Assembly (NCBI GenBank): GCA_015256915.3
Contig: CP076101.2
Coordinates: forward strand, 420,001-452,000
Origin: Candidatus Saccharimonas sp.
GTDB taxonomy: Bacteria; Patescibacteriota; Saccharimonadia; Saccharimonadales; Saccharimonadaceae
Length of the DNA stretch: 32,000 bases
Reading direction: 5' to 3'
Both the position numbers and the translations under genes were made by a program. Positions 1 to 32,000 of this stretch are shown piece after piece (positions within the stretch are counted from its first letter, which is position 1; every line of letters begins with the position of its first letter). The notes beneath the pieces were generated by a model that made no database searches, was not told where the DNA came from, and saw only the letters and a program-made list of their open reading frames with translations.

Positions 1-1044
1 CTGTTCATGATAATGGAAACTCGCCGCCAAACCGCGCTCGGCAAATTCATGCATGTCGCGAGTTCGAATTTGAAACTCCGCAATCAGTTTCGAAGGAGTA
101 ATTACTGTTGTGTGAAGTGATTGATAGCCATTTGGCTTTGGCATTGAAATATAATCTTTGATTCGTTCAATCATCGGTTTATAAATCGAATGCAAAATCC
201 CCAGAACACGATAGCAATCATCTTTCGAATTTACAATAATCCGCAGAGCCATCAAATCATAAACTCGGTCAATATCACCTTTTGTCTTTTTTAATTTTTT
301 ATGAAGTGAATAAACACTTTTTACGCGGCCAGAAATTTCAAAATCTAAACCAGCCTTTTTCAATTCCTGTTCAACCTCTTCTCGAACTTTTCCTAGTTTT
401 CGTGTGCTTTTACCAAGACGCTTTCGAATTTCATTTTCAAGCCGTTTATATTCTTTCGGGTTTAAATACAAAAAAGCTTGCTCTTCCATCTGCATTCGAA
501 CTCGCCCCATTCCTAAACGATCGGCGATTCTTGCGAAAACATCCAAAGTTTCACGAGCGATTTTTTTCTGTTTTTCGGGCGACATATATTGCAAAGTTTG
601 AACATTATGCAATCTATCAGCCAACTTAATAATAACCACTCGCACATCTTGCCCAACAGCAATCAATAATTTCGAAAGGTTGTCTTTAGTTTGAGGTAGA
701 TAGGTTTCAAGATCACCCATTCCAGCACGTGCTTTACCAACTTTAGTTACACCGTCAACCAAAAACGCAATATCGTCATCAAAATTTTCAGCAATTTCAT
801 CAAGGGGAGTTTCAGTATCTTCAACAACATCATGCAAAACACCAGCAATAATCGTGTCAATGTCCATCCCCCATTCAACCAAAAAACTCGCAACTTTCAA
901 AGGGTGCGTTATATATTCTTCACCAGATTTTCGCATTTGGCCTTTATGTTTTTCGGTAGCAAATTCAATCGCTTTTTCTAGTCTTTTTATATCTTCCGCC
1001 GAATAAAACGGTTTTGCAATTCTCAAGAGTTCTGCCTTTTCCAT
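1..1044 (-). CDS. rel: RelA/SpoT-family (p)ppGpp synthetase/hydrolase, N-terminal part; the gene runs off the left edge
   Basis: Absent from the ORF track because there is no stop in the window. My minus-strand translation from ATG 1044-1042 reads MEKAELLRIAKPFY...KHKGQMRKSGEEYITHPLKVA...AGVLHDVVEDT (HD hydrolase motif). It continues ...GRVKSVYSLHKKLKK...DLMALRIIV...YISMPKPNGYQSLHTTV (RelA_SpoT synthetase core) and is open to position 1. Confidence 0.9.
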   Translation of the reverse strand, partial: MEKAELLRIAKPFYSAEDIKRLEKAIEFATEKHKGQMRKSGEEYITHPLKVASFLVEWGMDIDTIIAGVLHDVVEDTETPLDEIAENFDDDIAFLVDGVTKVGKARAGMGDLETYLPQTKDNLSKLLIAVGQDVRVVIIKLADRLHNVQTLQYMSPEKQKKIARETLDVFARIADRLGMGRVRMQMEEQAFLYLNPKEYKRLENEIRKRLGKSTRKLGKVREEVEQELKKAGLDFEISGRVKSVYSLHKKLKKTKGDIDRVYDLMALRIIVNSKDDCYRVLGILHSIYKPMIERIKDYISMPKPNGYQSLHTTVITPSKLIAEFQIRTRDMHEFAERGLAASFHYHEQ

Positions 1045-1050
1045 ATATTA

Positions 1051-1078
1051 ATTATACACTTTTTTTGATAAAAGTAAA
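1051..1078 (-). promoter_or_regulatory. Predicted sigma70 promoter of rel: TTTACT-16-TATAAT, with the -10 ending 6 nt before the ATG (leaderless)
   Basis: The minus strand reads TTTACTtttatcaaaaaaagtgTATAATtaatatATG. There is no Shine-Dalgarno. Confidence 0.5.
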
Positions 1079-1110
1079 GCTTTTACATTTTTAGCAGAAT
1101 TTCACTAAAT

Positions 1111-1136
1111 AAAAACTGAGTATTTTTACTCAGTTT
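1111..1136 (-). terminator. Intrinsic terminator downstream of ppa
   Basis: The minus strand reads AAACTGAGTAaaaaTACTCAGTTTTT, a stem followed by a T-run. Confidence 0.65.
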
Positions 1137-1151
1137 CCAATTTATTTATAA

Positions 1152-1682
1152 CTATTTTTCGTTCCAGCGAACAATCGATTCGGCAATAACTTCTTTTGCT
1201 TCTTCTATGTCGCCAAATTTCTCAACTTTTGTTGTGCCAGCTTTTTTCAAATCTTTGTAGTGATTAAAGTGAAATTCAATCTGTTTAATAAGTTGCTCTG
1301 GTAAATCAGCCAAAGTTTTATAAGCATTTCCAGTGTTACGGTCGTCGGCGGGAACGGCAATAATTTTGTCGTCAACTTCTCCATCATCAACGAATTTCAT
1401 TACACCTAAGATTCGTGCTTCTAGGAAAATTCCAGTTGTAAGTGGATCATTTGTAATAAGTAAAACATCAAGCTCATCGCCATCTTCATCCAAAGTTTGC
1501 GGAATAAAACCATAATTAGTTGGCTTTGCAAAAGCTTTTGGTTCCACGCGATCAAGTTGCATTACAGCCAAATCACGATTCCATTCAATTTTGTGAGTTG
1601 AGCCAGTTGGAATTTCCACCACAACATTAATAATTCCATTTTTATAATCACCAGGAGTTAAAATTTTATTAAAATCTGCCAT
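1152..1682 (-). CDS. ppa: Inorganic pyrophosphatase (family I)
   Basis: ORF 1152..1715 is trimmed to the ATG at 1682, which is preceded by GAAAGGAAAAT. The sequence MADFNKILTPGDY...VVVEIPTGSTHKIEW...YGFIPQTLDEDGDELDVLL...DDKIIAV is typical of soluble PPase. Confidence 0.95.
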   Translation of the reverse strand: MADFNKILTPGDYKNGIINVVVEIPTGSTHKIEWNRDLAVMQLDRVEPKAFAKPTNYGFIPQTLDEDGDELDVLLITNDPLTTGIFLEARILGVMKFVDDGEVDDKIIAVPADDRNTGNAYKTLADLPEQLIKQIEFHFNHYKDLKKAGTTKVEKFGDIEEAKEVIAESIVRWNEK

Positions 1683-1737
1683 ATTTTCCTTTCTTTTATT
1701 CTTTAATTTTAGCAAAAAAACTTTAAAAGTTCAACCG

Positions 1738-2625
1738 TTAATCACGATTAGCAAGCTTAACTAAACTATCTTCTACCGTTTTTTGAGTTCGATGGCGAGT
1801 TTGAGTTTTAGTTTTAGCTTTCGAATTCTGCTTAATATTTTTTGATTTTTTAGAAGATTCTTTCGTTTTTTTTCCGCCTGTTACATTTTTTAAAACTGGT
1901 GCTCGCCCTTTACTTTTTTGAGTCTCAACTTTCGAAACCTTAACACTAGCAGGTCGTGCAAACATCATCTTTCCTGCGGCAGTTTGAAGCGAACGAATAA
2001 ATTCAACTTCACTAATCGTACCAATCAATCCTTCGCCATTTTCAACTACAACCATCGTACCATCTGGTAAATGCCCAATTCCTTGTTTTTTCTCATTACC
2101 TTTTTGAGTAATTTCAAGCATAATTTTTTCGCCTGGTAAATAGTCTGCACGAACTGACTGAACCAACTCATTAATATTTAAAACTTCAATTCCCTCAACT
2201 TTTGCAACTTTATTCAAGTTGTAGTCTGCCGTTAAGATATCAGCATTCATTTTTTTGGCGAGCGAAATCAAACGATTATCTACCCCTTCTTCTGCAGAAT
2301 TTCCATCCGCCAAAATGCTTACAGTTATTTTTTCTTCATTTTGAAGAGCTGAAATAATATCCAAGCCATATCTTGCACGAACTCGTTTTTCATCATCGCC
2401 ACCATCCGCCAAAATTTGAAGCTCACCGACTACACTCCGCGGAATCAGAATATCAAAATTAATAAATCCAGTTCTCGCTACTGCTAAAAATCGGCCATCA
2501 ATTAAAATTGATGTGTCAACTAGTACTTGTTTTTTTGTTTTCGAAATCAACGGTTTATCATTTTTCGAATCAAACCAAATTCCGCAAACAATAAATAAAA
2601 TTAAAAATAGTAAAAATGTTTCCAT
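1738..2625 (-). CDS. Membrane-anchored PIN + TRAM domain protein (YacL-like) with a lysine-rich C-terminal tail
   Basis: It has an N-terminal TM helix, then VLVDTSILIDGRF (PIN), then a C-terminal TRAM-like segment GEKIMLEITQKG...GIGHLPDGTMVVVE. It lies directly downstream of radA, as yacL does in Firmicutes. The RBS AAGGAAAG precedes the start. Confidence 0.8.
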   Translation of the reverse strand: METFLLFLILFIVCGIWFDSKNDKPLISKTKKQVLVDTSILIDGRFLAVARTGFINFDILIPRSVVGELQILADGGDDEKRVRARYGLDIISALQNEEKITVSILADGNSAEEGVDNRLISLAKKMNADILTADYNLNKVAKVEGIEVLNINELVQSVRADYLPGEKIMLEITQKGNEKKQGIGHLPDGTMVVVENGEGLIGTISEVEFIRSLQTAAGKMMFARPASVKVSKVETQKSKGRAPVLKNVTGGKKTKESSKKSKNIKQNSKAKTKTQTRHRTQKTVEDSLVKLANRD

Positions 2626-2633
2626 ACTTTCCT

Positions 2634-3986
2634 TTATTGTAAATATTTAATTAAAGCTTCTCGCAAATCACGAACAGATGTCACAATGCTATCTTTCGAA
2701 GAATTTTTTGGAGCAAGAACATTGTTAAACCCAAGTTTCTTTGCTTCAGAGATTCTTCTTTCAGTCTGAATCACTGTTCGAATTTCGCCGCCCAAGCCAA
2801 CTTCACCAAAAACTACTACACCATCAGAGAGTTTTCGCTTTGCAGCTGCCGAAGCGATCGCCATGGCAACAGCCAAGTCGGCTGCTCGGTCGTCAAGTTT
2901 TAACCCACCAACCACATTTATATGAATATCTTTATCACTTAAATCAAGTTTAGTTCGTCGCTGAAGAACTGCGATCAATAAATTGAGGCGATTTATATCA
3001 AATCCACTTGCTGCCCGTTTTGGATACCCAAAATTTGAGGTTGTTACTAAAGCCTGAATCTCAACCAAAATCGGGCGAGTTCCTTCTAGAGTTGCCATAA
3101 TTATTGAGCCATCCGTATTTTGGCGCTCAGCTAAAAGTGCCGCTGAAGGATTTTCGACAATTTTCAAACCATTATCAACCATTTCAAAAATCGCCGCCCC
3201 ACTAGTTGAACCATAGCGATTTTTTACCGCCCGTACAACTTTAAAGCCACCATATCGGTCTCCTTCGAAATTTAAAACTACATCAACTAGATGTTCAAGT
3301 GTTTTTGGCCCAGCGATTGAACCTTCTTTTGTAATATGGCCAACCAAAATAACAGCCGTTCCAGAACTTTTTGCTGCTTGAATTATTAAATTAGAAGAAT
3401 TCGTAATTTGCGAAACCGTTCCTGGTGCGCTCGAAATTTCTTCCATCGCCAAAGTTTGAATTGAGTCAATAATCACTAGGTCAAAGCCGCTCTCACGAAT
3501 TGTTGCTGAGATATCATCAGCCGAAGTTGAGGCAGCAAATTTAAGATTTTTGGCTTTAGAAGCACCAAGCCTTTTTGCACGTAATGCTACTTGCTCTGCC
3601 GATTCTTCACCTGAAACATACAAAACATTTTTCGAACCAGCAATAAAAGCTGAAATCTGCATTAAAAGCGTAGATTTTCCGATTCCAGGCTGTCCCGCAA
3701 TCAAAAGTACTCCTGCCGGCAAAATTCCACCACCCAAAACAATATCAAGATCTCTTATACCGCTCGAAATTCTTTCTTGTTTTTTTTCAGAAATAACTTC
3801 ATTCAAATCTTGCACATTCAAAATACGACCAGTTTTCGCACTTTTACTGATTGCGTTTTTTCCTAAAGCCTCTTCAACTTGCTCAACCAAGGTATTCCAA
3901 TGGCCACAGTTTTCACATTTTCCCGACCATTTAGGATAAGAAGCTCCACAATTTTGACATACAAATTTTGTTTTTAACTTCGCCAC
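2634..3986 (-). CDS. radA: DNA repair protein RadA/Sms
   Basis: The protein begins with the zinc ribbon CQNCGASYPKWSGKCENCGHWNT. It carries the Walker A motif GQPGIGKST and a KNRYG motif, followed by a Lon-like C-terminal domain. The start codon is GTG. Confidence 0.95.
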   Translation of the reverse strand: MAKLKTKFVCQNCGASYPKWSGKCENCGHWNTLVEQVEEALGKNAISKSAKTGRILNVQDLNEVISEKKQERISSGIRDLDIVLGGGILPAGVLLIAGQPGIGKSTLLMQISAFIAGSKNVLYVSGEESAEQVALRAKRLGASKAKNLKFAASTSADDISATIRESGFDLVIIDSIQTLAMEEISSAPGTVSQITNSSNLIIQAAKSSGTAVILVGHITKEGSIAGPKTLEHLVDVVLNFEGDRYGGFKVVRAVKNRYGSTSGAAIFEMVDNGLKIVENPSAALLAERQNTDGSIIMATLEGTRPILVEIQALVTTSNFGYPKRAASGFDINRLNLLIAVLQRRTKLDLSDKDIHINVVGGLKLDDRAADLAVAMAIASAAAKRKLSDGVVVFGEVGLGGEIRTVIQTERRISEAKKLGFNNVLAPKNSSKDSIVTSVRDLREALIKYLQ

Positions 3987-4022
3987 AACTAATATTTTAT
4001 CACAATAAATCTTTTTTGAAAA

Positions 4023-5015
4023 CTATAAACTTGGTGAATTTAAATTTGAATTTATACTTTTATAGAGTTCATTTTGCTGGACTGAAACTTCATTAAATTC
4101 ATTAATTTTCGAATTGTAACTATTCACTAAATTATTAATTTTCAACCTTGAATTTTCAAGATTTCGAATTCTTTGCAATAATTTTGCACGGTCAGCGTTA
4201 AATTCCGCCCGAGTTTCATACTTTCCAGTTTTAGCATCATTATTAAACTCGGCAATATCTTCCTCCAATTCTCTAGAATCTTCAGAGTATTTTTTCGTAG
4301 ATTGTTCGATCTCTGACTTCATTTTTTCAAGCTCTGCGGTCAAAGCTTCTGCTCGATTCTTTAAATCTTTAAAGTTTTTATTATAACTTTGATAGATCTG
4401 AGCGATTTCTCTACGATTTTTAAAAAACTTAGCATAATGTTCTTCAAGCTCTTTCGAGATTTCCAGCTGCTCAGTACCAATTAAGGAATGAAGCTCATTG
4501 ATTCTCTCACCAGGCTCAGTCCGATCATAAGATTGCATCAACTTTTCGAAATCTGCATCTTTAACCCTCTCATACTCAGCATTAAGCAGTTTGCCAATCT
4601 TATCTCGTTCGCTCAAGCTCATTCGCTCCCAAATTGCATGCAAAAGCTCGTGAGCCGCCGTTACCTCTTTTATACCGTCAAGTTTCAAGTTTTTTACATC
4701 ATAAAGATGAATTTTACCCAACTTATAACACCCCAAAATTGCTGAATCTTCTTCACGATTTTTGCAATTTTCATTAAATTTCTCTGAATCTTCAACCTTT
4801 GGGTTAGAAGCGTAAAAAATTGTCTTAGCATTAGTGGTTGGTTTAATTTTATTTTCTATTTTTAAAATTTCAGAATCTGGCTTATAATTTTGTGCTGCAA
4901 AATAATCACGGATCCCGTGTTGATTAAATAACACAAAAAATGCTGCACTACCAAGAATAGCAATAACTACTAAAGTTCGAGCTACTCTCCAAAAAGTTTT
5001 ATGTTGAAAAATCAT
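4023..5015 (-). CDS. Hypothetical membrane-anchored protein with an HExxH motif and a long C-terminal coiled coil (putative zinc metallopeptidase)
   Basis: It has an N-terminal TM helix (LVVIAILGSAAFFVLF) and the motif VTAAHELLHAIWERM. The C-terminal ~150 aa are heptad-like and E/K/N-rich. The function is not recognised. Confidence 0.6.
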   Translation of the reverse strand: MIFQHKTFWRVARTLVVIAILGSAAFFVLFNQHGIRDYFAAQNYKPDSEILKIENKIKPTTNAKTIFYASNPKVEDSEKFNENCKNREEDSAILGCYKLGKIHLYDVKNLKLDGIKEVTAAHELLHAIWERMSLSERDKIGKLLNAEYERVKDADFEKLMQSYDRTEPGERINELHSLIGTEQLEISKELEEHYAKFFKNRREIAQIYQSYNKNFKDLKNRAEALTAELEKMKSEIEQSTKKYSEDSRELEEDIAEFNNDAKTGKYETRAEFNADRAKLLQRIRNLENSRLKINNLVNSYNSKINEFNEVSVQQNELYKSINSNLNSPSL

Positions 5016-5053
5016 ATCATAACCATTATAATATTTTTATGAGAAAAAAGCAA
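5004..5053. promoter_or_regulatory. Back-to-back divergent promoters sharing the palindrome ATTATAAT as overlapping -10 boxes
   Basis: The plus strand reads TTGAAA(5004-5009)-17-TATAAT(5027-5032)-6 nt-ATG 5039. The minus strand reads TTGCTT(5053-5048)-17-TATAAT(5030-5025)-9 nt-ATG 5015. The whole intergenic spacer is 23 bp. Confidence 0.55.
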
Positions 5054-5716
5054 AGTATTTTTCGAAGAAGGAGAATTTTTGGTTTATTTTTTATAGCCAT
5101 AATCGCAATTGCATCAATTTTAGCAAATCCAGATTTTTGGCAAACTTCAAAACTAGATTCAAATAAAAAATCAGATTCTCAAACTTCTTTAACTGATTTA
5201 AACTCACTTGAAGTTAAAGGTCGTTCACCAAAAACTGGTTATTCTCGCGAGCAATTTGGTAAAGGCTGGACAAAAGATTCTAGCGGTTGCGATACACGAA
5301 ACCGTATTTTAAAACGTGATTTAATAAATGCTGTAGAAAATTCGGATTGCAAAATTTTAAGCGGAACCCTAAAAGACCCTTATACTGGCAAAGAAATTAA
5401 TTTTTCACGTAAGCAAAATGCTTCTGCTGTTCAAATAGACCACGTCGTTGCACTTTCTGATGCTTGGCAAAAGGGCGCTCAACAATTTTCGAAAGAAAAA
5501 CGAATCGAATTTGCGAATGATCCGCTAAATCTTTTAGCTTCAGATGGCCCAGCCAATCAGCAAAAAGGTGATTCTGACGCCGGCTCTTGGCTTCCTTCAA
5601 ATAAAGATTTTCGCTGTGAATATATTTCTCGCCAAATTTCAATCAAGAAAAAATACTCAATTTGGGTAACTGCCTCTGAAAAATCAGCAATGCAAAATAT
5701 TTTGCAAAATTGCTAA
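5039..5716 (+). CDS. Signal-anchored HNH/DUF1524-type nuclease (GmrSD C-terminal nuclease fold), probably extracytoplasmic
   Basis: It has an N-terminal anchor IFGLFFIAIIAIASILA. The motifs are GYSREQFGKGW...CDTRNRILKRDL...VQIDHVVALSDAW...NDPLNLLASDGPANQQKGDSDAGSWLP, as in secreted DUF1524 nucleases of Actinobacteria. Confidence 0.75.
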   Translation: MRKKQSIFRRRRIFGLFFIAIIAIASILANPDFWQTSKLDSNKKSDSQTSLTDLNSLEVKGRSPKTGYSREQFGKGWTKDSSGCDTRNRILKRDLINAVENSDCKILSGTLKDPYTGKEINFSRKQNASAVQIDHVVALSDAWQKGAQQFSKEKRIEFANDPLNLLASDGPANQQKGDSDAGSWLPSNKDFRCEYISRQISIKKKYSIWVTASEKSAMQNILQNC

Positions 5717-6702
5717 TCAGTAATTTCAAACCAATCAAACTTTTTAAAATTCTCGCCCTCAACTATTGCCGCAGCAAGCCGCATCTCGCTATTTTTTATA
5801 TTATTTTTGTAAGCAAAAAATTCTGCCGCAAATCGCATTTGATCCACTTTATTCTTTGAAATTGCAGCCTCTCCACCACCAAAATCATTATTTTTTCGAA
5901 ATTTAACCTCTGTAAAATAGTAATTTTCACCATATTTCGAAATAATATCAATTTCACAAAATTTTGTTCGCCAATTTCGCGCCAGAATCTCGTGTTTCTC
6001 TTGCTTTAGAAATTCCGCTACAAAATCCTCAGCTTTATCACCAAGCTCTTTTGTAGTAATTTTTTCAGCTTTCTTCACCTTAAAGGTATTCATGTTCTTA
6101 TTTTGAGAATTTTCTAAGAATTCCGCTATTGGCTTAAAACTTTTGCGATGTATTTTGCTCACTCCAAATTCAGACAAAGCTGCCCTATGTTTTGGTGTTC
6201 CATATCCTGCGTGATTTTCAAAGCAAAAAGGTGCAAGCTCAGGTTTTTTCGAAAGTTCTGCCATAAAATTATCCCTCGCAACTTTCGCACAAATTGCAGC
6301 TGCAGAAACGCTTAAAATTAGTAAATCAGCCTTTTTAAGAGTGGAGGCATATTTTTCAAGTGGTGTGCCAGCCAAGAAATTTACAGTGCCATCAATTATA
6401 ATTTCATTAAATTTGATATTTTGTTTTTTACATTTTATCTGCACTTCCTTAACAGCTCGCCTTGTTGCAAGTTTTAAAGCAGCGCTCAAACCAATTTCAT
6501 CAAGCTCATCGTTCGAAACCCAACCCAAGCCAATAATTGCAGAACTTTTAGAAATCTCTGCCGATAGCTTCTCTCTCTGCTTTTTTGAAAGAGCTTTTGA
6601 ATCTGTTAGTCCTTTAATTTTAGCACCATTCAAAACGCAAGCACCCACAACCAAAGGCCCAGCCCACGCTCCACGACCAACTTCATCAATCCCGAGAACC
6701 AT
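5713..6702 (-). CDS. rnhB: RNase HII fused to a YraN (UPF0102) endonuclease-like domain
   Basis: The N-terminal part MVLGIDEVGRGAWAGPLVVGA...DSK is RNase HII. The C-terminal ~115 aa, LGDKAEDFVAEFLKQEKHEILARNWRTKFCEIDIISKYG..YFTEVKFRKN..FGGGEAAIS..K, match the YraN signature. The start is set at ATG 6702, preceded by TAGGAAATAAA; the ORF track start at 6720 is an alternative. Confidence 0.85.
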   Translation of the reverse strand: MVLGIDEVGRGAWAGPLVVGACVLNGAKIKGLTDSKALSKKQREKLSAEISKSSAIIGLGWVSNDELDEIGLSAALKLATRRAVKEVQIKCKKQNIKFNEIIIDGTVNFLAGTPLEKYASTLKKADLLILSVSAAAICAKVARDNFMAELSKKPELAPFCFENHAGYGTPKHRAALSEFGVSKIHRKSFKPIAEFLENSQNKNMNTFKVKKAEKITTKELGDKAEDFVAEFLKQEKHEILARNWRTKFCEIDIISKYGENYYFTEVKFRKNNDFGGGEAAISKNKVDQMRFAAEFFAYKNNIKNSEMRLAAAIVEGENFKKFDWFEITD

Positions 6703-6822
6703 TTTATTTCCTAAATACATGAAAATTACAATAAGAATCAGTTTTTAACTATTTTAACGAATATCTATGTAAACATACTAACAAAAAAATATGCCTTAGT
6801 CAATAAACTTAATTTTTAGGAG

Positions 6823-7366
6823 ATGATATAATTAAAACTATAAAAAAGCATAATTGCAATTATTGAAGTTGTTATAGTTATTGCAGTGGCTGGGCTGATA
6901 TTTTTAATGGTGTTTCTTGCAGTCCCTACTCTTGGGCGATCTCAAAGATATACGGCAAAAAAATGATGCCCGTAATCTTTTAGTTGCAATTATTCAATTT
7001 AAGACTAATAATGGCGGCAAGGTTCCCTTTAATGAAAATAACGATGCATGGACAGAACTTAAACCTTATTGGAATAAAAGCCCGTACTTAAATGATCGTC
7101 CTAATGGTTATATTGACAACTTCGGCTCCTTTAATTCTACCACAACTCAAATTGCTACATATAGTAGACTTGATAGTGGTTGGCGTAGGCTGGGCAGTTG
7201 GAGTATCGTTCTTGGCGCGATTTGCAAAAAAGCGATAGCGACAGATACTGTTTAAAATATAGCGGATCTGTTCCAACTAAAGATATTGCTATATTGGTAA
7301 GTATAGCTCGAGAGTGTTCCTACTAATAACAGTTGGGGATACTGCATAGATTCAGAAAGTAATTAA
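6823..7366 (+). pseudogene. Decayed type IV pilin paralog with in-frame stops and several frameshifts
   Basis: The first frame reads M-I-stop-L-K-L-stop-K-S-I-I-A-I-I-E-V-V-I-V-I-A-V-A-G-L-I-F-L-M-V-F-L-A-V-P-T-L-G-R-S-Q-R-Y-T. The intact pilin at 11682..12185 reads MKKLKLNSGFTIIEVVLVLAIAGLIFLMVFLALPTLQRSQRDT. The reading then shifts +1 near 6955 into ORF 6917..7255, and shifts twice more. It ends WGYCIDSESN-stop, compared with GGLYCFSSSN-stop in the paralog. Confidence 0.7.
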
Positions 7367-7395
7367 AAATAGAAGAATGATTATTCTTCTATTTT
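7365..7395. terminator. Bidirectional hairpin between the pilin pseudogene and the convergent ORF
   Basis: ATAGAAGAAT-gatt-ATTCTTCTAT forms a perfect 10-bp stem flanked by A and T runs. It overlaps the stop codon at 7381-7383. Confidence 0.6.
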
Positions 7396-7881
7396 AGTAT
7401 TTTTGTGGTTTAGCTGATTTTTAAGAATATCTCGTACCCAAAAAATAGTTTTGAGCTCTTCGCTAATATGCTGCTCTTCCACTCCAAAATCCAAATAATG
7501 CGCACTTGCTACTTCAATATTATCGGTATAAATCGTTAGATGCTGATCACCCATCCCGAAATCACCTACATTAAGATCGTGGCTTAAAATTTCATATCTT
7601 CCATCGGAATATAACTCCCAGGGTTGATCATAACCACCACCGTCACGTGCTAAATCTGGGTTATAGCTTTCATTTAGTTGCCCTTCATCAATAAGAGCGA
7701 GATTTGATAAATCTAAATCATCTATTGCTCTTTTAACATTTTCTGGTGATGATTTCAATGTATAATATTTGTTATAAGACGGTTGTTTTCGAAAACCCTT
7801 ATTTGCGTTTAACGCCCATTCAGCATAAGCGTTATCTAAAAGATATTGTTGAGTTTTTGACTTGTTTAAGCTTTTTTCCAC
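7381..7881 (-). CDS. Hypothetical acidic cytoplasmic protein (166 aa)
   Basis: It is the only long ORF here, with a GTG start preceded by AAGGAAtctt. I recognise no TM helix, signal peptide or family. Confidence 0.55.
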   Translation of the reverse strand: MEKSLNKSKTQQYLLDNAYAEWALNANKGFRKQPSYNKYYTLKSSPENVKRAIDDLDLSNLALIDEGQLNESYNPDLARDGGGYDQPWELYSDGRYEILSHDLNVGDFGMGDQHLTIYTDNIEVASAHYLDFGVEEQHISEELKTIFWVRDILKNQLNHKNTKIEE

Positions 7882-7996
7882 AAGATTCCTTTGATGAGAC
7901 TTTATAACCTTCGCCTAAAGTCATCTCAAACTCTAGGATAGTATAATAACATAATAATAGAATAAAGTCAATAGTAATAATACATTTTTATAAAAA

Positions 7997-8026
7997 CAAA
8001 AAATCGCCCATGTTCTGAGCGATTTT
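7997..8026 (-). terminator. Intrinsic terminator downstream of rplL
   Basis: The minus strand reads AAAATCGCTCAgaacaTGGGCGATTTTTTGTTTTT. Confidence 0.7.
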
Positions 8027-8065
8027 CGAAAATCTTAAATTAGGTCGATTTAATTTATGTTAAAA

Positions 8066-8431
8066 TTAAGCAAGCTCAACAGTTGCGCCAGCTTCTTCAA
8101 GTTTCTTTTTAGCTTCTTCAGCTTCATCTTTAGAAACTTTTTCTTTAACTGGTGCTGGAGCACCGTCAACGATAGCTTTAGCTTCACCAAGTCCAAGACC
8201 TGTGATTTCTTTAACTGCTTTAATAACAGCAACTTTTTGAGCACCAGCGTCTTTCAAAGTAACTGTAAATTCTGTTTTTTCGTCAGCAGCGTCAGCAGCA
8301 CCGGCAGTAGCGGCAACAGCAACAGCAGCTGGTTCAATTCCGTATTCCTCTTTGAGGTGTTCTTTCAATTCGTTAGCTTCAAGAATAGTCAATTTTACCA
8401 ATTCTTCAGCCAATTTTTTAATGTCAGCCAT
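8066..8431 (-). CDS. rplL: 50S ribosomal protein L7/L12
   Basis: The sequence is [34 protein letters not shown]...[45 protein letters not shown]. The RBS is AAAGGAG. Confidence 0.97.
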
Positions 8432-8476
8432 TTTTGACTCCTTTAAAAATTTAAGTGGTTAATATTCTAAAATAAA

Positions 8477-8986
8477 TTAATTGGTTGCTTTTCGAAATTC
8501 CAAATCTTCGTTTGTAAGACCACCAGCAATCGCGTTGATTGGCGAAAGAAGTGTATCCACAATTTGACCAATAAGTTGATCTTTGCTTGGAAGTTCTGAA
8601 AGTGTCGTAACAGTTGCAGTATCCATTACATCACCATTGTCAGCAAACGCACCAACAAGTTTCATTTCTGGGTGATTTTTTGCAAATTTACCCAAAACTT
8701 GCGCAGCAGCAATCTCATCTTCGCTTGAAATTGCGTAAACGAGTTGACCTTTTAGTGCAGAAGTGTCAGATTCTTTCAAAGCTTCAACTTCTTGCATCGC
8801 AACTCGCACAAGGCGGTTTTTAACAACTTTGATTTGAACACCAGCCTCGCGAGCTTCTTTTCGAAGTTCTTGAAGGTCGGCAACTGTCAAACCTTTATAT
8901 TCAGCAAAAGCTGTCATTTTTGCGTCTTTAAGAGCGGCGCTTAATTCAGCAACCAATTGGTTCTTTTTATCGCGTGATAATGCCAT
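8477..8986 (-). CDS. rplJ: 50S ribosomal protein L10
   Basis: The sequence is MALSRDKKNQLVAELSAALKDAKMTAFAEYKGLTVADLQELRKEAREAGVQIKVVKNRL. It lies directly upstream of rplL. The RBS is AAAAGGAG. Confidence 0.97.
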   Translation of the reverse strand: MALSRDKKNQLVAELSAALKDAKMTAFAEYKGLTVADLQELRKEAREAGVQIKVVKNRLVRVAMQEVEALKESDTSALKGQLVYAISSEDEIAAAQVLGKFAKNHPEMKLVGAFADNGDVMDTATVTTLSELPSKDQLIGQIVDTLLSPINAIAGGLTNEDLEFRKATN

Positions 8987-9141
8987 AAAAACTCCTTTTT
9001 TGGTTAATATTCTTCGACCTAATTGTTAAGATTCTGGCGTTTTGAAAGCCTCCCTTCAAAACTCGTTGGCAGATAGAAAAAGTATTCCTCGGTAGCAGAT
9101 TAAGCCTAGCTAACGCGAGGCGGCTACTGTCTCTGGCAACT
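8987..9141 (-). promoter_or_regulatory. Structured 5' leader of rplJ-rplL, a possible L10-leader autoregulatory element
   Basis: This is a ~155-nt untranslated leader. It contains a long helix GUUGcCAGA / UCUGcCAAC, an inner GUAGC/GCUAC pairing, and a hairpin GUUUUGAAgggaggcUUUCAAAAC. The position matches the known L10(L12)4 feedback leader. The assignment to that family is not verified. Confidence 0.4.
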
Positions 9142-9147
9142 TGTTTT

Positions 9148-9176
9148 ATTTTAACACAAAAAAACTAAAATTTCAA
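9148..9176 (-). promoter_or_regulatory. Predicted promoter of rplJL: TTGAAA-17-TGtTAAAAT
   Basis: The minus strand reads TTGAAAttttagtttttttgtgtTAAAAT. Confidence 0.5.
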
Positions 9177-9220
9177 GCATTTTAAGCTCAAAAATCTTGC
9201 AAAAATGTCTAATTTCATCA

Positions 9221-9249
9221 TTGACAAGCTAGAATATTTTTGCTATAAT
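9221..9249 (+). promoter_or_regulatory. Full-consensus sigma70 promoter: TTGACA-17-TGcTATAAT with an A/T-rich upstream region
   Basis: The sequence is ttgacaAGCTAGAATATTTTTGCtataat. No start codon follows within 50 nt. Confidence 0.65.
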
Positions 9250-9255
9250 TTAACA

Positions 9256-9504
9256 GTTATCACTTATTGAAAGTTTATTTTAGATACGATGGATATAAAG
9301 AGGACGAAGAAGTATTCATCGAGGATATTGAAAGATAACGCAATAAATGATAACTAAAAAACTTCCGAAGAAAGGAGATAGTTCTTTTATCAAGTAGTTT
9401 TATAAACTATGGCGGTAGTTTATAAAATGAATCACATCTTCGCTAGTGAGAAGTTATTTATTCATTACGGTTACGGTTACGCTTATTCTTGCGTAGCCTT
9501 TTTT
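9256..9504 (+). ncRNA. Candidate ~250-nt structured RNA of unknown class, bounded by a consensus promoter and an intrinsic terminator
   Basis: A 14-bp closing helix pairs 9256-9269 GTTATCACTTATTG with 9341-9354 CAATAAATGATAAC, with one mismatch. Internal pairings include CGATG/CATCG and the hairpin TAGTTT-tat-AAACTA (9395-9409). There is no convincing ORF or RBS. I could not match it to SRP, 6S, tmRNA, RNase P, T-box or any common riboswitch consensus. Confidence 0.4.
9475..9504 (+). terminator. Intrinsic terminator ending the candidate RNA
   Basis: GGTTACGC-ttattctt-GCGTAGCC is followed by TTTTTT. Confidence 0.65.
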
Positions 9505-9649
9505 ACTGCATAAAATTAAGCCGCTCCAAACCCAGAACTAGAATAAACTCCAACAGAATATTAGCTGCACTACTACCGTTTTTAGCCACCACTGAGTTTT
9601 TTCATAGTAAAATAAAATGTTTAAAATCTAAAAATTCTAAGAGCAACTC

Positions 9650-9678
9650 TCGCCAACTTTTCTAAAAAATGTTATAAT
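9650..9678 (+). promoter_or_regulatory. Predicted promoter of the LtaS-like gene: TCGCCA-17-TGtTATAAT, with the ATG 9 nt after the -10
   Basis: The sequence is aaaaaTGtTATAATtaaattattATG. There is no Shine-Dalgarno. Confidence 0.5.
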
Positions 9679-9687
9679 TAAATTATT

Positions 9688-11637: not shown

Positions 11638-11639
11638 TC

Positions 11640-11666
11640 AAAAACTCCTTTATGAGAGGAGTTTTT
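11640..11666. terminator. Bidirectional terminator between the LtaS-like gene and the pilin gene
   Basis: The sequence is AAAAACTCCTttatgagAGGAGTTTTT. Confidence 0.7.
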
Positions 11667-11681
11667 AAATTTTTAAAAATC

Positions 11682-12185
11682 TTAATTTGAAGATGAAAAA
11701 CAATATAATCCGCCAGTTTCAAGTCTTGTAAGTAAAATGAAATTCGTTGCATTGAAAGGTTTATCAACGAATCTCCCAACCTCGCAATCAGCATTTGAGT
11801 TATAGTAAATTTCACCAATTTCAAGATTATCTTGGCCAACCCCTGTTCCACAATTTACCTTACTTCCACACTTTAAAAACGTGTAAAATTGCCCTGTACT
11901 TGGATCCAAAAACTCACTCTCGTGGGGCCTTAGATAGTTTTTAATAAAATTTTCAAGCTCATTATTAGTATCATAATCACTCACGTAATTACCTTTATTG
12001 TTCGTTCTCGACTCCTCTAAAATTGCCGCAATTTTCGAAATAACCTGTTTTCTTTGGGTGTCCCTCTGCGAACGCTGCAATGTAGGTAGAGCCAAAAATA
12101 CCATTAGAAATATCAGGCCAGCAATCGCAAGAACTAAAACAACCTCAATAATTGTAAAACCACTATTTAGCTTAAGCTTTTTCAT
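11682..12185 (-). CDS. Type IV pilin-like protein with a prepilin N-terminal cleavage/methylation motif
   Basis: The N-terminus is MKKLKLNSG/FTIIEVVLVLAIAGLIFLMVFLALPTL, with G-1, F+1 and E+5. The C-terminal region contains Cys pairs. The start is set at ATG 12185; the ORF track begins at an upstream TTG at 12194. Confidence 0.85.
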   Translation of the reverse strand: MKKLKLNSGFTIIEVVLVLAIAGLIFLMVFLALPTLQRSQRDTQRKQVISKIAAILEESRTNNKGNYVSDYDTNNELENFIKNYLRPHESEFLDPSTGQFYTFLKCGSKVNCGTGVGQDNLEIGEIYYNSNADCEVGRFVDKPFNATNFILLTRLETGGLYCFSSSN

Positions 12186-12193
12186 ACTCTTCA

Positions 12194-12221
12194 ATTATAG
12201 CACACTCTCTAAAAAAGTCAA
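12194..12221 (-). promoter_or_regulatory. Predicted pilin promoter: TTGACT-16-TGcTATAAT, with the ATG 8 nt after the -10
   Basis: The minus strand reads TTGACTtttttagagagtgtgcTATAATtgaagagtATG. Confidence 0.55.
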
Positions 12222-12224
12222 TTA

Positions 12225-12251
12225 AAAATCGCCCAAAATTTGAGCGATTTT
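12225..12251 (-). terminator. Intrinsic terminator downstream of rplS
   Basis: The minus strand reads AAAATCGCTCAAAttTTGGGCGATTTTTAATT. Confidence 0.7.
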
Positions 12252-12297
12252 AATTTTATAAAAACAATTAAGCTTATTTGGCTTCTTCAGTTTTTTC

Positions 12298-12714: not shown

Positions 12715-12789
12715 ATTTTCCACTCACTTTTAAATTTAATATATACAATCAAGATTCATTATATCATACTTTTTAGTTTTTGTGAAGAG

Positions 12790-14418: not shown

Positions 14419-14425
14419 TAACTTA

Positions 14426-14454
14426 ATTTTACCACAAGCACTTTATTTTTTCAA
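14426..14454 (-). promoter_or_regulatory. Predicted pilB promoter: TTGAAA-17-TGgTAAAAT, with the ATG 7 nt after the -10 (leaderless)
   Basis: The minus strand reads TTGAAAaaataaagtgcttgtggTAAAATtaagttaATG. Confidence 0.55.
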
Positions 14455-14515
14455 TCAAAAATGCTAAAATATTCTCATCGCTTCAAGCGAAATTTTTAGA
14501 ACGAGGTAAGAAAAA

Positions 14516-14857: not shown

Positions 14858-14924
14858 CAAGCGTTAAAATTCGAGCCTTTGGGCTCTTTTTATTTTTTAA
14901 AAAATCTGCTAAAATAAAAAAATA

Positions 14925-17482: not shown

Positions 17483-17488
17483 AATAGA

Positions 17489-17517: not shown

Positions 17518-17520
17518 TAA

Positions 17521-18333: not shown

Positions 18334-18412
18334 TTTTTCCTTTCTTTTTATTTAAAAATTCTTAAGCTTTAGATATATTATATCACAGCTTATACTTTTT
18401 CGAAAGTGCATT

Positions 18413-23620: not shown

Positions 23621-23843
23621 GTTGCTCCAATTGAGGCGATTCCATGTAAATCACCTCTGAGGACTAGCAAAACCTTCAAATGTGAAACTTAACAATCTGG
23701 CAATTATTTAATAGAAGCCTTCCCTTTCGAAAGCAAGCTAATTAGTAATAATTTAGAACTTAAGCAATAAGATTGAGAAACTTTAAAATATAAATAAACT
23801 AATCGAAGGATATTGAAAACTTTAGTAGCCTATACTGTTATAA

Positions 23844-28590: not shown

Positions 28591-29868
28591 ATGGAATACA
28601 CAATTAAAGACATTAAAGGACGACAAATTTTAGACTCTCGTGGCAACCCAACAGTTGAGGCGGATGTAATTTTAGAAAACGGAGCTTTTGGCCGAGCCGC
28701 GGTTCCGAGTGGGGCATCAACAGGTTCGGGTGAAGCTCTTGAACTTCGTGACGGTGGTTCAGCTTTTGGTGGAAAAGCCGTAACGAAAGCAGTTTCAGCT
28801 GTGAATAACCAAATTCGTGGAGCCCTAGTCGGCAAGAATGCTGAAGATCAAGAAGCGATTGATAAAATCATGATTGAACTTGATGGCACAGAAAATAAAT
28901 CTTCCCTCGGAGCAAATGCAATTTTAGCAGTTTCACTTGCTACTGCAAAAGCTGTTGCAAATGCGAAAGGTGTAGAACTTTGGCAATATATCGCTGAAAA
29001 AACAAATTCAACACCAAATCTTCCTCTTCCTATGATGAATGTGATGAATGGTGGTGCACATGCTGGCTGGGCAACTGATATTCAAGAATACATGATTATG
29101 CCAGTTGGTGCAAAAACTATTTTCGAAGCAGTTCAAATGGGTGCAGAAACTTTCCACGCTTTAGCAAAAGTTTTGAAAACTAAAAATTACCCAACGACTG
29201 TTGGCGACGAAGGTGGTTATGCTCCAAAAGTTCAAAATGGCAATGAAGAGCCGCTTGAATTGATTTCAGAAGCTATTAAAGACGCTGGATATGAACTTGG
29301 CAAAGATATCGCCTTTGCTTCAGATCCAGCTTCAAGTGAATTCTATAAAGAAGAAAAGTATGATCTAAAAGCTAACGATGCAATCCTTTCAAGTGAAGAG
29401 ATGATTGAATTTTATGAAAATCTAACTTCGAAATATCCTTTTGTTTCAATCGAAGATGGCTTAGCTGAAAATGACTGGGATGGATGGAAGATTCTTACCG
29501 AAAAACTTGGTTCAAAAATTCAGCTTGTTGGTGACGACCTAATGGTTACAAATTCGAAACTTCTACAAAAATCAATCGATTTAGGTGTCGCGAACGCAAT
29601 TCTTATTAAACCAAACCAGATCGGCTCTTTGACAGAAACAATCGAAGCTGTAAAATTAGCACAAAATAATGGCTACAATACTGTTATGAGCCACCGTTCA
29701 GGTGAAACCGAAGATGTAACAATTGCGCATTTAGCTGTAGGATTGGGCTGTGGGCAGATCAAGACTGGTTCACTCTCACGAACTGATCGAGTTGCAAAAT
29801 ATAATGAATTAATGCGAATTGCAGAAGCTCACCCAGAACTTGAACTTGCAAAACCTTTCAAAAAATAA
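28591..29868 (+). CDS. eno: Enolase (phosphopyruvate hydratase)
   Basis: The sequence is [22 protein letters not shown]...[16 protein letters not shown]...DDLMVTN...[17 protein letters not shown]...SHRSGETED. Confidence 0.97.
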
Positions 29869-29884
29869 TAATTTAGAATAATTA

Positions 29885-29913
29885 AAAATCTCCAGAATCT
29901 AACTGGAGATTTT
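29885..29913. terminator. Bidirectional terminator between eno and dnaE
   Basis: The sequence is AAAATCTCCAGaatctaaCTGGAGATTTT. Confidence 0.7.
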
Positions 29914-29922
29914 ATTTTACTT

Positions 29923-32000
29923 TTAATCCTTAAGAACAACGCAATCTTCGCCTAGTAATCTCACTAGCTCTTTTGGCAAATCTGAATTTGAGTCAACTTT
30001 AAATGGCATTCGAATTGCAGATTTCTCAACCTCGCCGAGAACCAAAATTATCTCACTCATACCTGGGAATTTTCCACAGATCTTCTTTACTGAAAGCAAT
30101 GATTCATGATCACTTGGATTTTTAATATGTACGAAGACTCTTTGTATTTTTTCAGCTTGATAGTTTTCTGCTGATCTCGACGGATTTGATGTCGACTTTT
30201 CTGAAGATCTATTCAAAACCGCACTGCTATTATTTTTAGGAGTAAATGCTTTTTTCTGTATATTTGAAACATTTTGCGAAACTGTTTTCGTTTGAGGAAC
30301 TTTTCTCGCCTTTAAGTCATCTGCCCTACGACCAGTAGATTCATAATTTTCCAATTCTTCATCTGTTATTATCGAAACTGTTTCTGCTATAATCTGAGCA
30401 TCAGATTTTAAATTACCTTCCCTATCGCGGGCGGAAATTTTTCCTTCAATTTTTAAAACCGCATCAATTTTAAGCTTTTCGCTAATTTCAGAATAAAGAT
30501 TCGGGAAGATAATCACCTCTCCTTCAGAAGTTTTGTCTTCCATCTTCACAAACGCCATTTTTGTTCCAGATTTCGTTATAATCGTTCGAATATCAATCAC
30601 AATTCCACCAATAGTCGCTTTTTGACCGTCAGTATTCGGTTGAACCTGTGAAAGTGGCTGAGTTTGCTCTTCGAAATATTTAACATATCTGTCGAGTGGA
30701 TGCGCTGAGACGTAAAGCCCTAAAAGCTCACGCTCCCAAGTTAGACGCTCCTTGTCGGTGTGTTGTTTCGGCGCGTTGATTAATTCAATTGATGATTCAA
30801 CTCGCATATCTTCAGCACCCGCAAAGCCGAATAAATCAGTCTGGCCTGAAAGTGCCTCTTTTTGAGATTTCGAACCATATTCCTGGATTCTTTCAAGATT
30901 AAAAAGCAAATCTGAGCGAGTTCCAAATTGGTCAAAAGCCCCAGTCATAATTAATGAATCCCAGGCCTTTTTATTAAATTGGCGGGCGTTAACACGTTTT
31001 GCAAAATCTAAAATTGAAGTAAATTTACCGTCAGCTTTTCGAGCATTCAAAACTGCATCAACTGCACCACTACCAACAGCCTTCACCGCTAAAAGACCAA
31101 AACGAATTTTATTCTCGTGTGGTACAATTGCAAAATCCTTGAATGATTCATTTACATCTGGACCAAGAACCTCAATTCCCATAGAACGGCATTCGGCAAT
31201 CTCAATCGCTAAACGGTCGGTGTCATCAGAGTCGGCTGTCATTAATGCCGCCATGAAAGCATCTGGGTAATGTGCCTTAATATAAGCTGTCCAATAGGCA
31301 ATTAAAGCATAGCACGCCGCATGCGACTTATTGAAACAATAGTTAGCAAATTCCTCCAAATGTTCCCAGAAAGCCTCAACTTTTCCTCGGTCGGCGTTAG
31401 AATGTTTTACTGCTCCTTCAATAAACTCGCCCTTCATTTTCTTCATCAAGTCGATTTTCTTTTTACCCACGGCCTTTCGAAGCGTATCCGCCTGACCACC
31501 AGTAAATCCGCAAACTTCCTTCGAAATCTGCATAAATTGCTCCTGATAAACCAAAATTCCATAAGTATTTTTAAGAGCATTCTCCATATGATCTTCATAG
31601 TAAGTAACTGGCTCTTCACCGTGTTTTCGAGCAATAAATTTTGGAATTTCGCTCATTGGCCCAGGTCGATAAAGTGCAACCATGGCGATAATATCTTCAA
31701 ACTTTGAAGGTTTAAGCTCCCGCAGATATCGCTTCATTCCAGCGGATTCAAGCTGAAAAACACCGGTTGAATCACCACGAGCTAATAATTCATAAGCTTT
31801 TTTATCATCAAGGCCAAGTTTCGAAAGGTCAAGGTCAATACCATATGTTTTTTTGACAATTTTTTGCGCAGTTGAAATAATTGAAAGGTTTTTAAGTCCC
31901 AAAAAGTCCATTTTTAAAAGACCTAAATCTTCAACCTGGCCCATCGGAACTTGAGTTGCCACAACACCTTTTTGTGCCATTTCAAGAGGTAGATATTTCA
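29923..32000 (-). CDS. dnaE: DNA polymerase III alpha subunit, C-terminal two-thirds; the gene continues past the right edge
   Basis: The motifs are GLLKMDFLGLKNLS, ALYRPGP and FNKSHAACYALIAYWTAYIKAHYP, followed by an OB-fold region and a serine/asparagine-rich C-terminal linker. The frame stays open upstream of the annotated Met at 31980 (..KYLPLE-MAQKG). Confidence 0.95.
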   Translation of the reverse strand, partial: KYLPLEMAQKGVVATQVPMGQVEDLGLLKMDFLGLKNLSIISTAQKIVKKTYGIDLDLSKLGLDDKKAYELLARGDSTGVFQLESAGMKRYLRELKPSKFEDIIAMVALYRPGPMSEIPKFIARKHGEEPVTYYEDHMENALKNTYGILVYQEQFMQISKEVCGFTGGQADTLRKAVGKKKIDLMKKMKGEFIEGAVKHSNADRGKVEAFWEHLEEFANYCFNKSHAACYALIAYWTAYIKAHYPDAFMAALMTADSDDTDRLAIEIAECRSMGIEVLGPDVNESFKDFAIVPHENKIRFGLLAVKAVGSGAVDAVLNARKADGKFTSILDFAKRVNARQFNKKAWDSLIMTGAFDQFGTRSDLLFNLERIQEYGSKSQKEALSGQTDLFGFAGAEDMRVESSIELINAPKQHTDKERLTWERELLGLYVSAHPLDRYVKYFEEQTQPLSQVQPNTDGQKATIGGIVIDIRTIITKSGTKMAFVKMEDKTSEGEVIIFPNLYSEISEKLKIDAVLKIEGKISARDREGNLKSDAQIIAETVSIITDEELENYESTGRRADDLKARKVPQTKTVSQNVSNIQKKAFTPKNNSSAVLNRSSEKSTSNPSRSAENYQAEKIQRVFVHIKNPSDHESLLSVKKICGKFPGMSEIILVLGEVEKSAIRMPFKVDSNSDLPKELVRLLGEDCVVLKD

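Follow-up and report, generated by a model that had tools for sequence, protein, structure and literature searches.

A hyper-abundant TTCGAA palindrome in one genus-level clade of gut Saccharibacteria

What has filled the DNA of one gut bacterium with the six-base palindrome TTCGAA? The question is raised by a stretch of 32,000 bases (the window) from Candidatus Saccharimonas sp. (contig CP076101.2, positions 420,001-452,000; G+C content (GC) 35.1%). A sequence-only reading of the window had counted 104 copies of the hexamer by eye, an excess of about 10-fold, and had described them as spread over all reading frames and non-coding DNA. Exact counting returned the identical number, 104 in 32,000 bases, where the mononucleotide model expects 10.7 (a 9.7-fold excess). 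TTCGAA ranks first among the hexamers of the window, and TTCGA and TCGAA rank first among its pentamers. All our statistics come from about 40 kb of sequence in this genome, namely the window and 8 kb further left, and from orthologous pieces of about 20 kb in relatives. Gene calls were backed by Pfam matches and by the genes called on public contigs.

One answer would lie in ordinary base composition, in codon or dipeptide usage, in a dispersed repeat or in an assembly artefact. Di- and trinucleotides do account for part of the raw excess: Markov models of order 1, 2 and 3 expect 23.6, 36.2 and 43.9 copies, respectively. However, the maximal-order model, a check that the sequence-only reading had proposed together with a codon-shuffled null, still expects only 88.1 (z = 5.8), and that model already includes the enriched pentamers. 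Between 94 and 98 of the 104 sites are coding, 94 of them in the first gene set. Against these 94, shuffling synonymous codons within genes left 29.5±4.6 sites (maximum 45 in 1000 shuffles), shuffling codon order left 19.1±4.2, and shuffling third positions while keeping dinucleotides left 56.6±4.5 (maximum 70 in 1000 shuffles); overall, the codon-aware shuffles give z of about 8-14. Every phase is in excess, with 18, 31 and 45 sites in phases 0, 1 and 2 compared to 7.5, 10.6 and 11.9 expected. The 3.3 kb of non-coding DNA (GC 28%) hold 6 sites, against 1.1 expected from mononucleotides or 1.6 from a first-order Markov model (P = 0.006). This last count was made after a correction of the gene calls: a 115-residue open reading frame (ORF) at 282-629 (+) lies inside a RelA/SpoT-family gene and is therefore spurious, so that the six sites at 63-671 were moved into that gene as coding. 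The sequence-only reading had named two grounds on which its claim should be dropped. Codon or dipeptide usage, the first, fails to explain the excess in three types of shuffle and in the codon-context tables given below, and the enrichment extends to all three phases and is not confined to one frame, the second; the observation therefore stands.

The sites are spaced 308 bp apart on average (coefficient of variation 0.83), a distribution compatible with an exponential one (Kolmogorov-Smirnov test, p = 0.35), and none of the window's genes is significantly site-poor. The start positions of all 104 copies, the six non-coding sites and one example of each phase are as follows.

TTCGAA starts: 63, 89, 224, 423, 495, 671, 1820, 1931, 2540, 2564, 2695, 2777, 3264, 3631, 4108, 4163, 4545, 5061, 5488, 5895, 5936, 6248, 6512, 7788, 8025, 8491, 8860, 9927
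TTCGAA starts, continued: 10001, 10343, 10762, 10986, 11127, 11323, 11376, 11566, 12034, 12437, 12564, 12580, 13092, 13152, 13887, 14311, 14549, 14591, 14759, 14943, 15252, 15362, 15859, 16420, 16783, 16790
TTCGAA starts, continued: 17271, 17282, 17570, 17874, 18113, 18146, 18399, 18695, 18801, 19246, 19405, 19578, 20377, 20683, 20840, 20929, 21444, 21514, 21712, 22522, 22643, 22688, 23077, 23264, 23726
TTCGAA starts, continued: 24046, 24460, 24523, 24973, 25264, 25506, 26044, 26054, 26339, 26431, 26868, 27145, 27554, 27751, 27883, 29122, 29427, 29553, 30009, 30585, 30670, 30869, 31476, 31520, 31820
8025-8030, non-coding site tTTCGAAa, upstream of rplL
14549-14554, non-coding site tTTCGAAa, in the 506-bp spacer between PilB and SpoU
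14591-14596, non-coding site aTTCGAAa, in the same PilB-SpoU spacer
14759-14764, non-coding site tTTCGAAa, in the same PilB-SpoU spacer
18399-18404, non-coding site tTTCGAAa, just upstream of a hydrolase gene
23726-23731, non-coding site tTTCGAAa, between two tRNA genes and inside neither
29122-29127, + strand, phase 0 example TTC-GAA (Phe-Glu), in the enolase gene
29427-29432, + strand, phase 2 example xxT-TCG-AAx (Ser-Lys), in the enolase gene
10001-10006, + strand, phase 1 example xTT-CGA-Axx (Arg), in an LtaS-like sulfatase gene

The frames that the sequence-only reading had assigned (TTC-GAA at 29122, T-TCG-AA at 29427 and 29553, TT-CGA-A at 10001) are correct, and the sites that it had placed outside genes (8025, 18399 and 23726) are non-coding in the corrected calls. 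T-loop copies (GGTTCGAATCC) were considered as a source of sites and rejected, since neither tRNA gene contains one.

Codon choice around the sites reveals which bases of the hexamer are favoured. TTC encodes phenylalanine in 18 of 37 cases (49%) when GAA follows but in none of the 27 cases followed by GAG or GAY, the rate elsewhere being 19% (p = 7e-6), and the glutamate that follows TTC is GAA 18 times and GAG 0 times. Serine is encoded by TCG in 45 of 89 cases (51%) in T|_|AA contexts, compared to 8-13% elsewhere (p = 5e-17). Arginine is encoded by CGA in 31 of 36 cases (86%) in TT|_|A contexts, compared to 12-35% elsewhere (p = 2e-12), the remaining five being AGA once, CGC twice and CGG twice, with CGT at 0. 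A T in the third position just before the site is also favoured in the codon-context tables. The force on TTCGAA thus acts on every position of the hexamer.

A preference for particular neighbours, T before and A after, had also been seen by eye. The base before the site is T in 69 of 104 copies (66%), whereas generic TTC is preceded by T in only 38-40%, and the base after the site is A in 62 of 104 (60%). The full octamer TTTCGAAA occurs 41 times in the window and at five of the six non-coding sites; beyond ±1 the flanks are unconserved. The two halves of the palindrome are coupled, TTCGA being followed by A in 82% of cases, and 59% of the 176 copies of TCGA in the window lie within TTCGAA. 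Related words are scarce. AAGCTT, a palindrome of the same composition, has 26 copies, so that it is far rarer than TTCGAA, as the sequence-only reading had said, although its figure of about 20 was too low. The near-variants that it had called rare number 9 (ATCGAA), 8 (CTCGAA), 10 (TTCGAT) and 8 (TTCGAG), and one-mismatch neighbours other than the products of CpG transitions have 6-36 copies each, both orientations summed.

We asked, as the sequence-only reading had suggested, whether relatives share the enrichment. Exact-protein look-ups matched the window to gut-type metagenome contigs in ENA and Logan, one of them a 240-kb scaffold and several of them 99% identical. In a scan of species-representative genomes, the nearest relatives of the window were uncultured Candidatus Saccharibacteria metagenome-assembled genomes (MAGs), including UMGS1907, and enrichment (2.3-3.2 sites per kb) was found only at loci with at least 94% enolase identity. 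The next Saccharibacteria (63-71% enolase identity) and about 65 unrelated bacteria had 0-0.6 sites per kb, the sole exception among the unrelated ones being a Luteolibacter contig (L050; 4.9 kb, 61.5% GC) with 6 sites, or 1.2 per kb. Scanning metagenomes with PilB yielded 50 loci, and all 13 that were checked for gene order are syntenic with the window. BLAST-anchored pseudo-alignments resolved at least four species groups with 79-96% DNA identity to the window, all of which carry 2.1-3.4 sites per kb, and in clade loci of about 10 kb or more TTCGAA ranks first to fourth among hexamers. Genomes and contigs rich in TTCGAA include CAUQGB01, USNP01 (UMGS1907), CALHCA01, CALIXB01, BNJV01000132.1 (666 kb), BNJT01001056.1 (698 kb), BNJT01000680.1 (660 kb), BNJS01003921.1 (414 kb) and ODKC01000006.1 (306 kb); the great length of the BNJ* contigs suggests that long-read data exist. 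The enrichment is seen in independent assemblies from ENA, Logan and GTDB-collection MAGs, which argues against an assembly artefact. By contrast, three outgroup loci (L175, OEAS01000003.1; L176, ERZ773065 NODE-219; L190, ERZ773083 NODE-20) that have the window's gene order and tetranucleotide profile at 74% DNA identity (GC 36.6-38.1%, CpG odds 1.08-1.23) contain 14, 19 and 14 copies per 21.6 kb, where a first-order Markov model expects 13.3, 16.2 and 13.3. This syntenic outgroup is the cleanest control and the best empirical null for the excess. Because it sits at the Markov expectation with matched genes and composition, the excess is a property of one clade and not of these genes or their composition. 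TTCGAA with its T/A flanks (TTTCGAAA) is a lineage-specific hyper-abundant palindrome of one genus-level clade of gut Saccharibacteria.

Some individual loci deserve mention in their own right. L193, L196 and L197, which have low PilB identity, were considered as new genome regions and rejected, being the same syntenic region of the same clade. Some low identity values of BNJ* contigs may come from indel errors of assembly. L157 encodes a PilB protein identical to that of the window, yet its 21-kb region (window 2790-24418) has 95.5% DNA identity, a mosaic that suggests recombination between lineages of the clade. Two loci of a related Saccharibacteria lineage, L173 (QWCC01000019.1) and L174 (ODVC01000018.1), syntenic with window positions 1152-18333 and with a PilB 86% identical (GC 32.5%), have the opposite pattern, with CpG odds of 0.64, TCGA at 0.3 of expectation and 2 copies of TTCGAA in about 20 kb. 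This could be a general loss of CpG or avoidance of a TCGA-type restriction site.

Comparison with the outgroup at matching codons reveals how the sites arose. Only 3-5 of 52-55 window sites read TTCGAA in the outgroup, and the remaining outgroup words are one to six scattered substitutions away from it, indicating that point mutations, rather than inserted elements, created the sites. For this reason, and because the flanks are not conserved, a dispersed repeat or mobile element was rejected as their source. An explanation of the excess by composition, codon or dipeptide usage or a repeat is therefore already refuted, and to this whole group of answers, artefact included, we leave next to no probability. 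At the enolase site at 29427, the matching place reads TTCAAA in the related loci L007, L008 and L010, so that TTCGAA there is a gain in the window's lineage.

The proportion of sites in common falls within the clade from 88% at 95% identity to 62% at 86%, 50% at 82% and 37% at 79%, with 14% as the lowest figure when divergence grows further, and private sites are present in every lineage. The high density is accordingly a steady state of gain and loss, with a cause that is still active in each lineage. Sites are nevertheless retained more often than codon-position- and base-specific rates predict, in 23 of 41 cases against L007 (13.4±3.0 expected, z = 3.2) and in 15 of 17 against L010 (10.0±2.0 expected, z = 2.5). 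CpG transitions in the frame xTT-CGA-Axx would create a stop codon or turn Arg into Gln. Where a site lies in either of the other frames, species typically differ by having TTTGAA or TTCAAA instead, and these two transitions make up 16 of the 34 site differences against L007; they dominate because they are the main synonymous routes. Codons that overlap sites have 58% amino-acid identity to the outgroup, compared to a background of 72% (p = 2e-4), which could mean either that sites settle where the protein tolerates change or that sites forced replacements. About three sites per kb are kept by a persistent directional force that acts at synonymous, non-synonymous and non-coding positions, probably genome-wide, through ordinary point substitutions and the continuous gain and loss of single sites.

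What could exert such a force? We tentatively favour, at somewhat less than even confidence, a self-recognition palindrome akin to an uptake sequence or to HIP1 (highly iterated palindrome 1 of cyanobacteria), which would be read by a putative methyltransferase and driven by biased uptake or recombination. A force on the whole palindrome points to a dimeric, sequence-specific protein, reading a palindrome of 6-8 bp, that the ancestor of the clade would have acquired. A TTCGAA-specific DNA methyltransferase, orphan or self-marking, would be the most likely candidate, and the obvious one because enzymes of the BstBI/AsuII restriction-modification group recognize TTCGAA. TTCGAA, possibly methylated, would then favour the uptake or recombination of kin DNA in naturally competent bacteria, and alleles that carry a site would be transmitted preferentially, a form of 'molecular drive'. 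Biased uptake or transmission has been proposed for the uptake sequences of Neisseria and Haemophilus, for Campylobacter RAATTY in its methylated form and, lately, for methylated HIP1 of cyanobacteria. Natural competence, mediated by ComEC and type IV pili, is known in Saccharibacteria (PMC10633639). In cyanobacteria, methylated HIP1 increases transformation by as much as 100-fold or more (bioRxiv 10.1101/2024.09.10.611283), and HIP1 abundance co-varies with uptake machinery genes (bioRxiv 10.64898/2026.06.24.733823). The clade restriction, the continuous turnover and the known competence of Saccharibacteria lend support to a self-mark or uptake function and to protein binding alike. The bolder claim, that the Candidate Phyla Radiation here yields its first system for recognizing self DNA by a sequence tag, acting via an acquired methyltransferase and/or a pilus or competence receptor, strikes us as possible but doubtful.

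Several points weigh against a self-recognition palindrome. In the 40 kb inspected, Pfam annotation turned up no gene for a DNA methyltransferase, a restriction enzyme or a candidate receptor. Known uptake sequences are 9-12 bp long, non-palindromic and about three times less dense, and a 6-mer discriminates foreign DNA only about 4-10-fold. The excess conservation described above is modest and is found mostly in the frame xTT-CGA-Axx. The under-dispersion of bin counts is weak (variance-to-mean ratio 0.45-0.8, P = 0.02-0.19 by bin size); a slightly even spacing of the sites is suggestive only and does not hold for every bin size. Unenriched relatives also have the window's pilus and nuclease genes and those related to competence. 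Finally, competence has been shown only in other genera of Saccharibacteria (PMC10633639).

A second route also begins with a TTCGAA methyltransferase and couples it to biased mismatch repair, as in Elhai's ratchet model for alternate HIPs. Replication errors that complete a site would be methylated and escape correction while errors that destroy one would be repaired back, so that the palindrome would need no function of its own. Such a ratchet predicts the bias at all positions and the enrichment in all frames and in non-coding DNA that we observed, and high turnover with modest conservation suits a neutral drive. It also predicts a saturating density, which the rather even spacing would fit, and an enrichment that appears sporadically, only in lineages that have gained a methyltransferase, as with alternate HIPs (PMC4390886), in keeping with the sharp boundary of the clade. 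However, the model is unproven, with difficulties that its author has listed (PMC4390886, section 3.4), words one base away from TTCGAA show no overall depletion compared with the outgroup, and the enrichment has lasted through at least four species groups that diverge by about 21% in DNA, unlike alternate HIPs, whose occurrence is said to be sporadic and not clade-wide. We regard the ratchet as rather unlikely, and rank the uptake or recombination route slightly above it because Saccharibacteria are naturally competent; nothing in the data is decisive in separating the two routes. A different kind of cause would be selection to keep many sites at which an abundant dimeric protein binds or nicks, the candidates being a nucleoid-associated protein or a MutH-like nuclease keyed to hemimethylated TTCGAA, that is, an analogue of Dam/MutH derived from a restriction-modification system. 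A dimer is suggested by the palindrome and its symmetric T/A flanks, the frequency of one site per 308 bp is like that of a 4-base site such as GATC, and the slight evenness of spacing and the conservation above background are consistent with such a role. On the other hand, the 40 kb inspected hold no clade-specific DNA-binding gene, and single sites turn over fast, from which it follows that no TTCGAA site is individually important. Furthermore, GATC is not known to be enriched several-fold in Dam+ bacteria. Binding-site selection therefore appears improbable to us.

The sequence-only reading had also raised a mutation or repair bias, and the form of it that is limited to the CpG does not survive. 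Deamination of 5-methylcytosine countered by Vsr-type over-correction of TTTGAA and TTCAAA, or protection of the C, would fit the prominence of those two words among the differences between species and the stability of sites in the frame where the transitions are non-synonymous. Yet the codon skew is equally strong for alternatives reached only by transversion (AGA, CGT and CGC) and at hexamer positions 1, 2, 5 and 6. Moreover, TTTGAA and TTCAAA are not depleted: together they number 100 in the window against 104.5 expected from a first-order Markov model, and their density is 26.8 per 10 kb against 25.3 in the outgroup. These two findings exclude a CpG-only bias as the sole cause, and we give it hardly any weight.

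The genes of the window supply the context. The sequence-only reading had pointed to a pilin, PilB and a secreted nuclease as possible clues. The genes are indeed there, but unenriched relatives carry them as well, so that pilin, PilB, RadA and the GmrSD_C-type nuclease are context and not specific evidence.

12790-14418, - strand, PilB, type IV pilus ATPase; present in unenriched relatives
11682-12185, - strand, pilin with an N-terminal methylation motif
5039-5716, + strand, nuclease with a GmrSD_C / DUF1524 (His-Me) domain, the 'secreted nuclease' of the sequence-only reading; 73-75% identical in the unenriched outgroup
2634-3986, - strand, RadA/Sms recombination protein
1-1044, - strand, 5' part of a RelA/SpoT-family gene (HD, RelA_SpoT, TGS) that runs off the window

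Other features of the region were noted along the way. A 335-residue protein encoded at 5713-6720 (-) fuses RNase HII to a YraN/UPF0102 (PD-(D/E)xK nuclease-like) domain and has 53-71% identity in the outgroup. In the TTCGAA-rich clade, a block of unk112, unk166, rplL, rplJ, the LtaS-like sulfatase gene and the pilin gene (6917-12185) stands between the RNase HII gene and rplS; these two genes adjoin each other in L175, L190 and L173, which marks a rearrangement specific to the clade. L176 has a weak pilin-like match (40%) between rplS and PilB. The PilB-SpoU spacer (14419-14924) is unusually long at 506 bp, and in addition to its three TTCGAA sites it contains overlapping ORFs on opposite strands (80 and 113 residues) without annotation; a small gene or RNA could lie inside it. 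Assemblies of L001-L004 and L007, from several samples and two species, end 100-200 bp past the start of dnaE (window 29923-32000 and beyond), which points to a conserved repeat, perhaps an rRNA operon, or a variable island.

Other words and other sequences showed patterns of their own. ACGT is about four-fold under-represented (24 copies in the window against about 104 expected), likewise in neighbours (L175, L176, L190, L195 and L201), which may reflect avoidance of an ACGT-type restriction site common to the wider group. TACGTA, TGTACA, CTATAG and ACGCGT are absent from the window, and GCGA/TCGC and CCGC/GCGG are about two-fold over-represented. No phage of this clade emerged when viral contigs were scanned for clustered TTCGAA. 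Three IMG/VR contigs, L129 1-11599 (IMGVR_UViG_3300044959_000303), L127 1-11983 (IMGVR_UViG_3300044959_000237) and L148 1-6983 (IMGVR_UViG_3300020567_000331), have 6-9 copies per kb, with 105 TTCGAA in 11.6 kb, and TTTGAA and TTCAAA are nearly absent from them (2-10 copies). Their CpG odds are 1.7-1.9 and their TA odds 0.26-0.40, and TAA and TAG are rare, so that long ORFs occur on both strands; Pfam gave hints only (WD40/Prp19-like, DUF723, REase_MTES_1575). They come from an unrelated organism with another compositional regime, possibly eukaryotic or a giant virus.

Only a few phyla are known to have hyper-abundant short palindromes or uptake sequences, and what HIP1 does has been a matter of debate for 30 years; the case described here concerns an ultra-small epibiont from the gut of humans or animals. 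The phylogenetic boundary is unusually sharp, since enriched and unenriched relatives that are syntenic and matched in composition are only about 25% apart in DNA, and with such sister lineages at hand the causal gene should be findable by comparative genomics. Should TTCGAA control uptake or recombination, it would reveal the route of gene exchange in uncultured, naturally competent bacteria and would aid the design of DNA for their genetic manipulation. If it serves self-DNA recognition, the clade would hold an independent and recently evolved counterpart of the DNA uptake sequence (DUS) of Neisseriaceae, the uptake signal sequence (USS) of Pasteurellaceae and methylated HIP1, one that has changed protein sequences, and sister lineages without the enrichment would offer a natural 'before and after' comparison. 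The density of TTCGAA is in any case a clean binning signature for the clade.

Our search of a literature library found no link between TTCGAA and Saccharibacteria or Patescibacteria and no mention of uptake sequences in Saccharibacteria, and we therefore set the palindrome beside systems described in other bacteria. BstBI, AsuII, SfuI and NspV recognize the identical 6-bp palindrome. The recognition site of an active type II system is normally avoided by the genome that carries it, but TTCGAA is enriched here. An enriched restriction-type palindrome is also found in E. coli, where, in work by Bhagwat and McClelland in 1992 and by Gelfand and Koonin in 1997, CCWGG is said to be over-represented through the repair bias of Dcm/Vsr. 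That very-short-patch repair has an effect of less than 2-fold, acts on T:G mismatches only and depletes the T-product; TTCGAA lacks this signature, with a 3-10-fold excess that involves all positions and leaves TTTGAA and TTCAAA undepleted. Methylated RAATTY (CtsM), the self-DNA discriminator in transformation of Campylobacter jejuni, is similarly a short AT-rich palindrome, and TTCGAA may likewise be a methyl-tagged self mark for transformation; RAATTY is not known to reach a several-fold excess.

The likeness to DUS and USS lies in over-representation throughout the genome, including inside genes (for TTCGAA, in the roughly 40 kb read), in rather even spacing and in an organism with type IV pili and competence genes. 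Sites accumulate and turn over by point mutation while density stays high in each lineage, and they prefer more variable positions of proteins, as uptake sequences are reported to do. Formally, TTCGAA falls outside the DUS/USS definition. Those sequences are 9-12 bp or longer, non-palindromic, enriched hundreds-fold and present at about 1 per kb, whereas TTCGAA is a 6-bp palindromic core with weak ±1 flanks, a 3-10-fold excess and 3.25 copies per kb. The DUS receptor is known (ComP), and the 40 kb contain no receptor candidate for TTCGAA.

HIP1 (GCGATCGC) and the alternate HIPs of cyanobacteria offer the other comparison. They differ from TTCGAA in phylum, ours being Patescibacteria/Saccharibacteria, and in the central place of a cognate methyltransferase, none having been seen for TTCGAA in 40 kb. 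HIP1 is an octamer with a 15-300-fold excess, whereas TTCGAA is a hexamer core (an octamer with weak flanks), AT-rich with a single CpG, and in 3-10-fold excess. HIP1 is spread along the chromosome with periods of 10-90 kb; in the 40 kb of contiguous sequence analysed here, TTCGAA shows only a weak local under-dispersion. In both cases, however, a short palindrome is hyper-abundant in all frames and in intergenic DNA (Elhai 2015, PMC4390886; Xu, Lawrence and Durand 2018, PMC5861425), originates by point substitution without a mobile element and is conserved somewhat above background. Both words are type II restriction-modification sites in naturally transformable host lineages, and TTCGAA, like the alternate HIPs, is restricted to a particular lineage. 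A hyper-abundant palindrome in all frames and in non-coding DNA, conserved above background, is what describes a HIP, and TTCGAA in this clade of Saccharibacteria has each of these properties.

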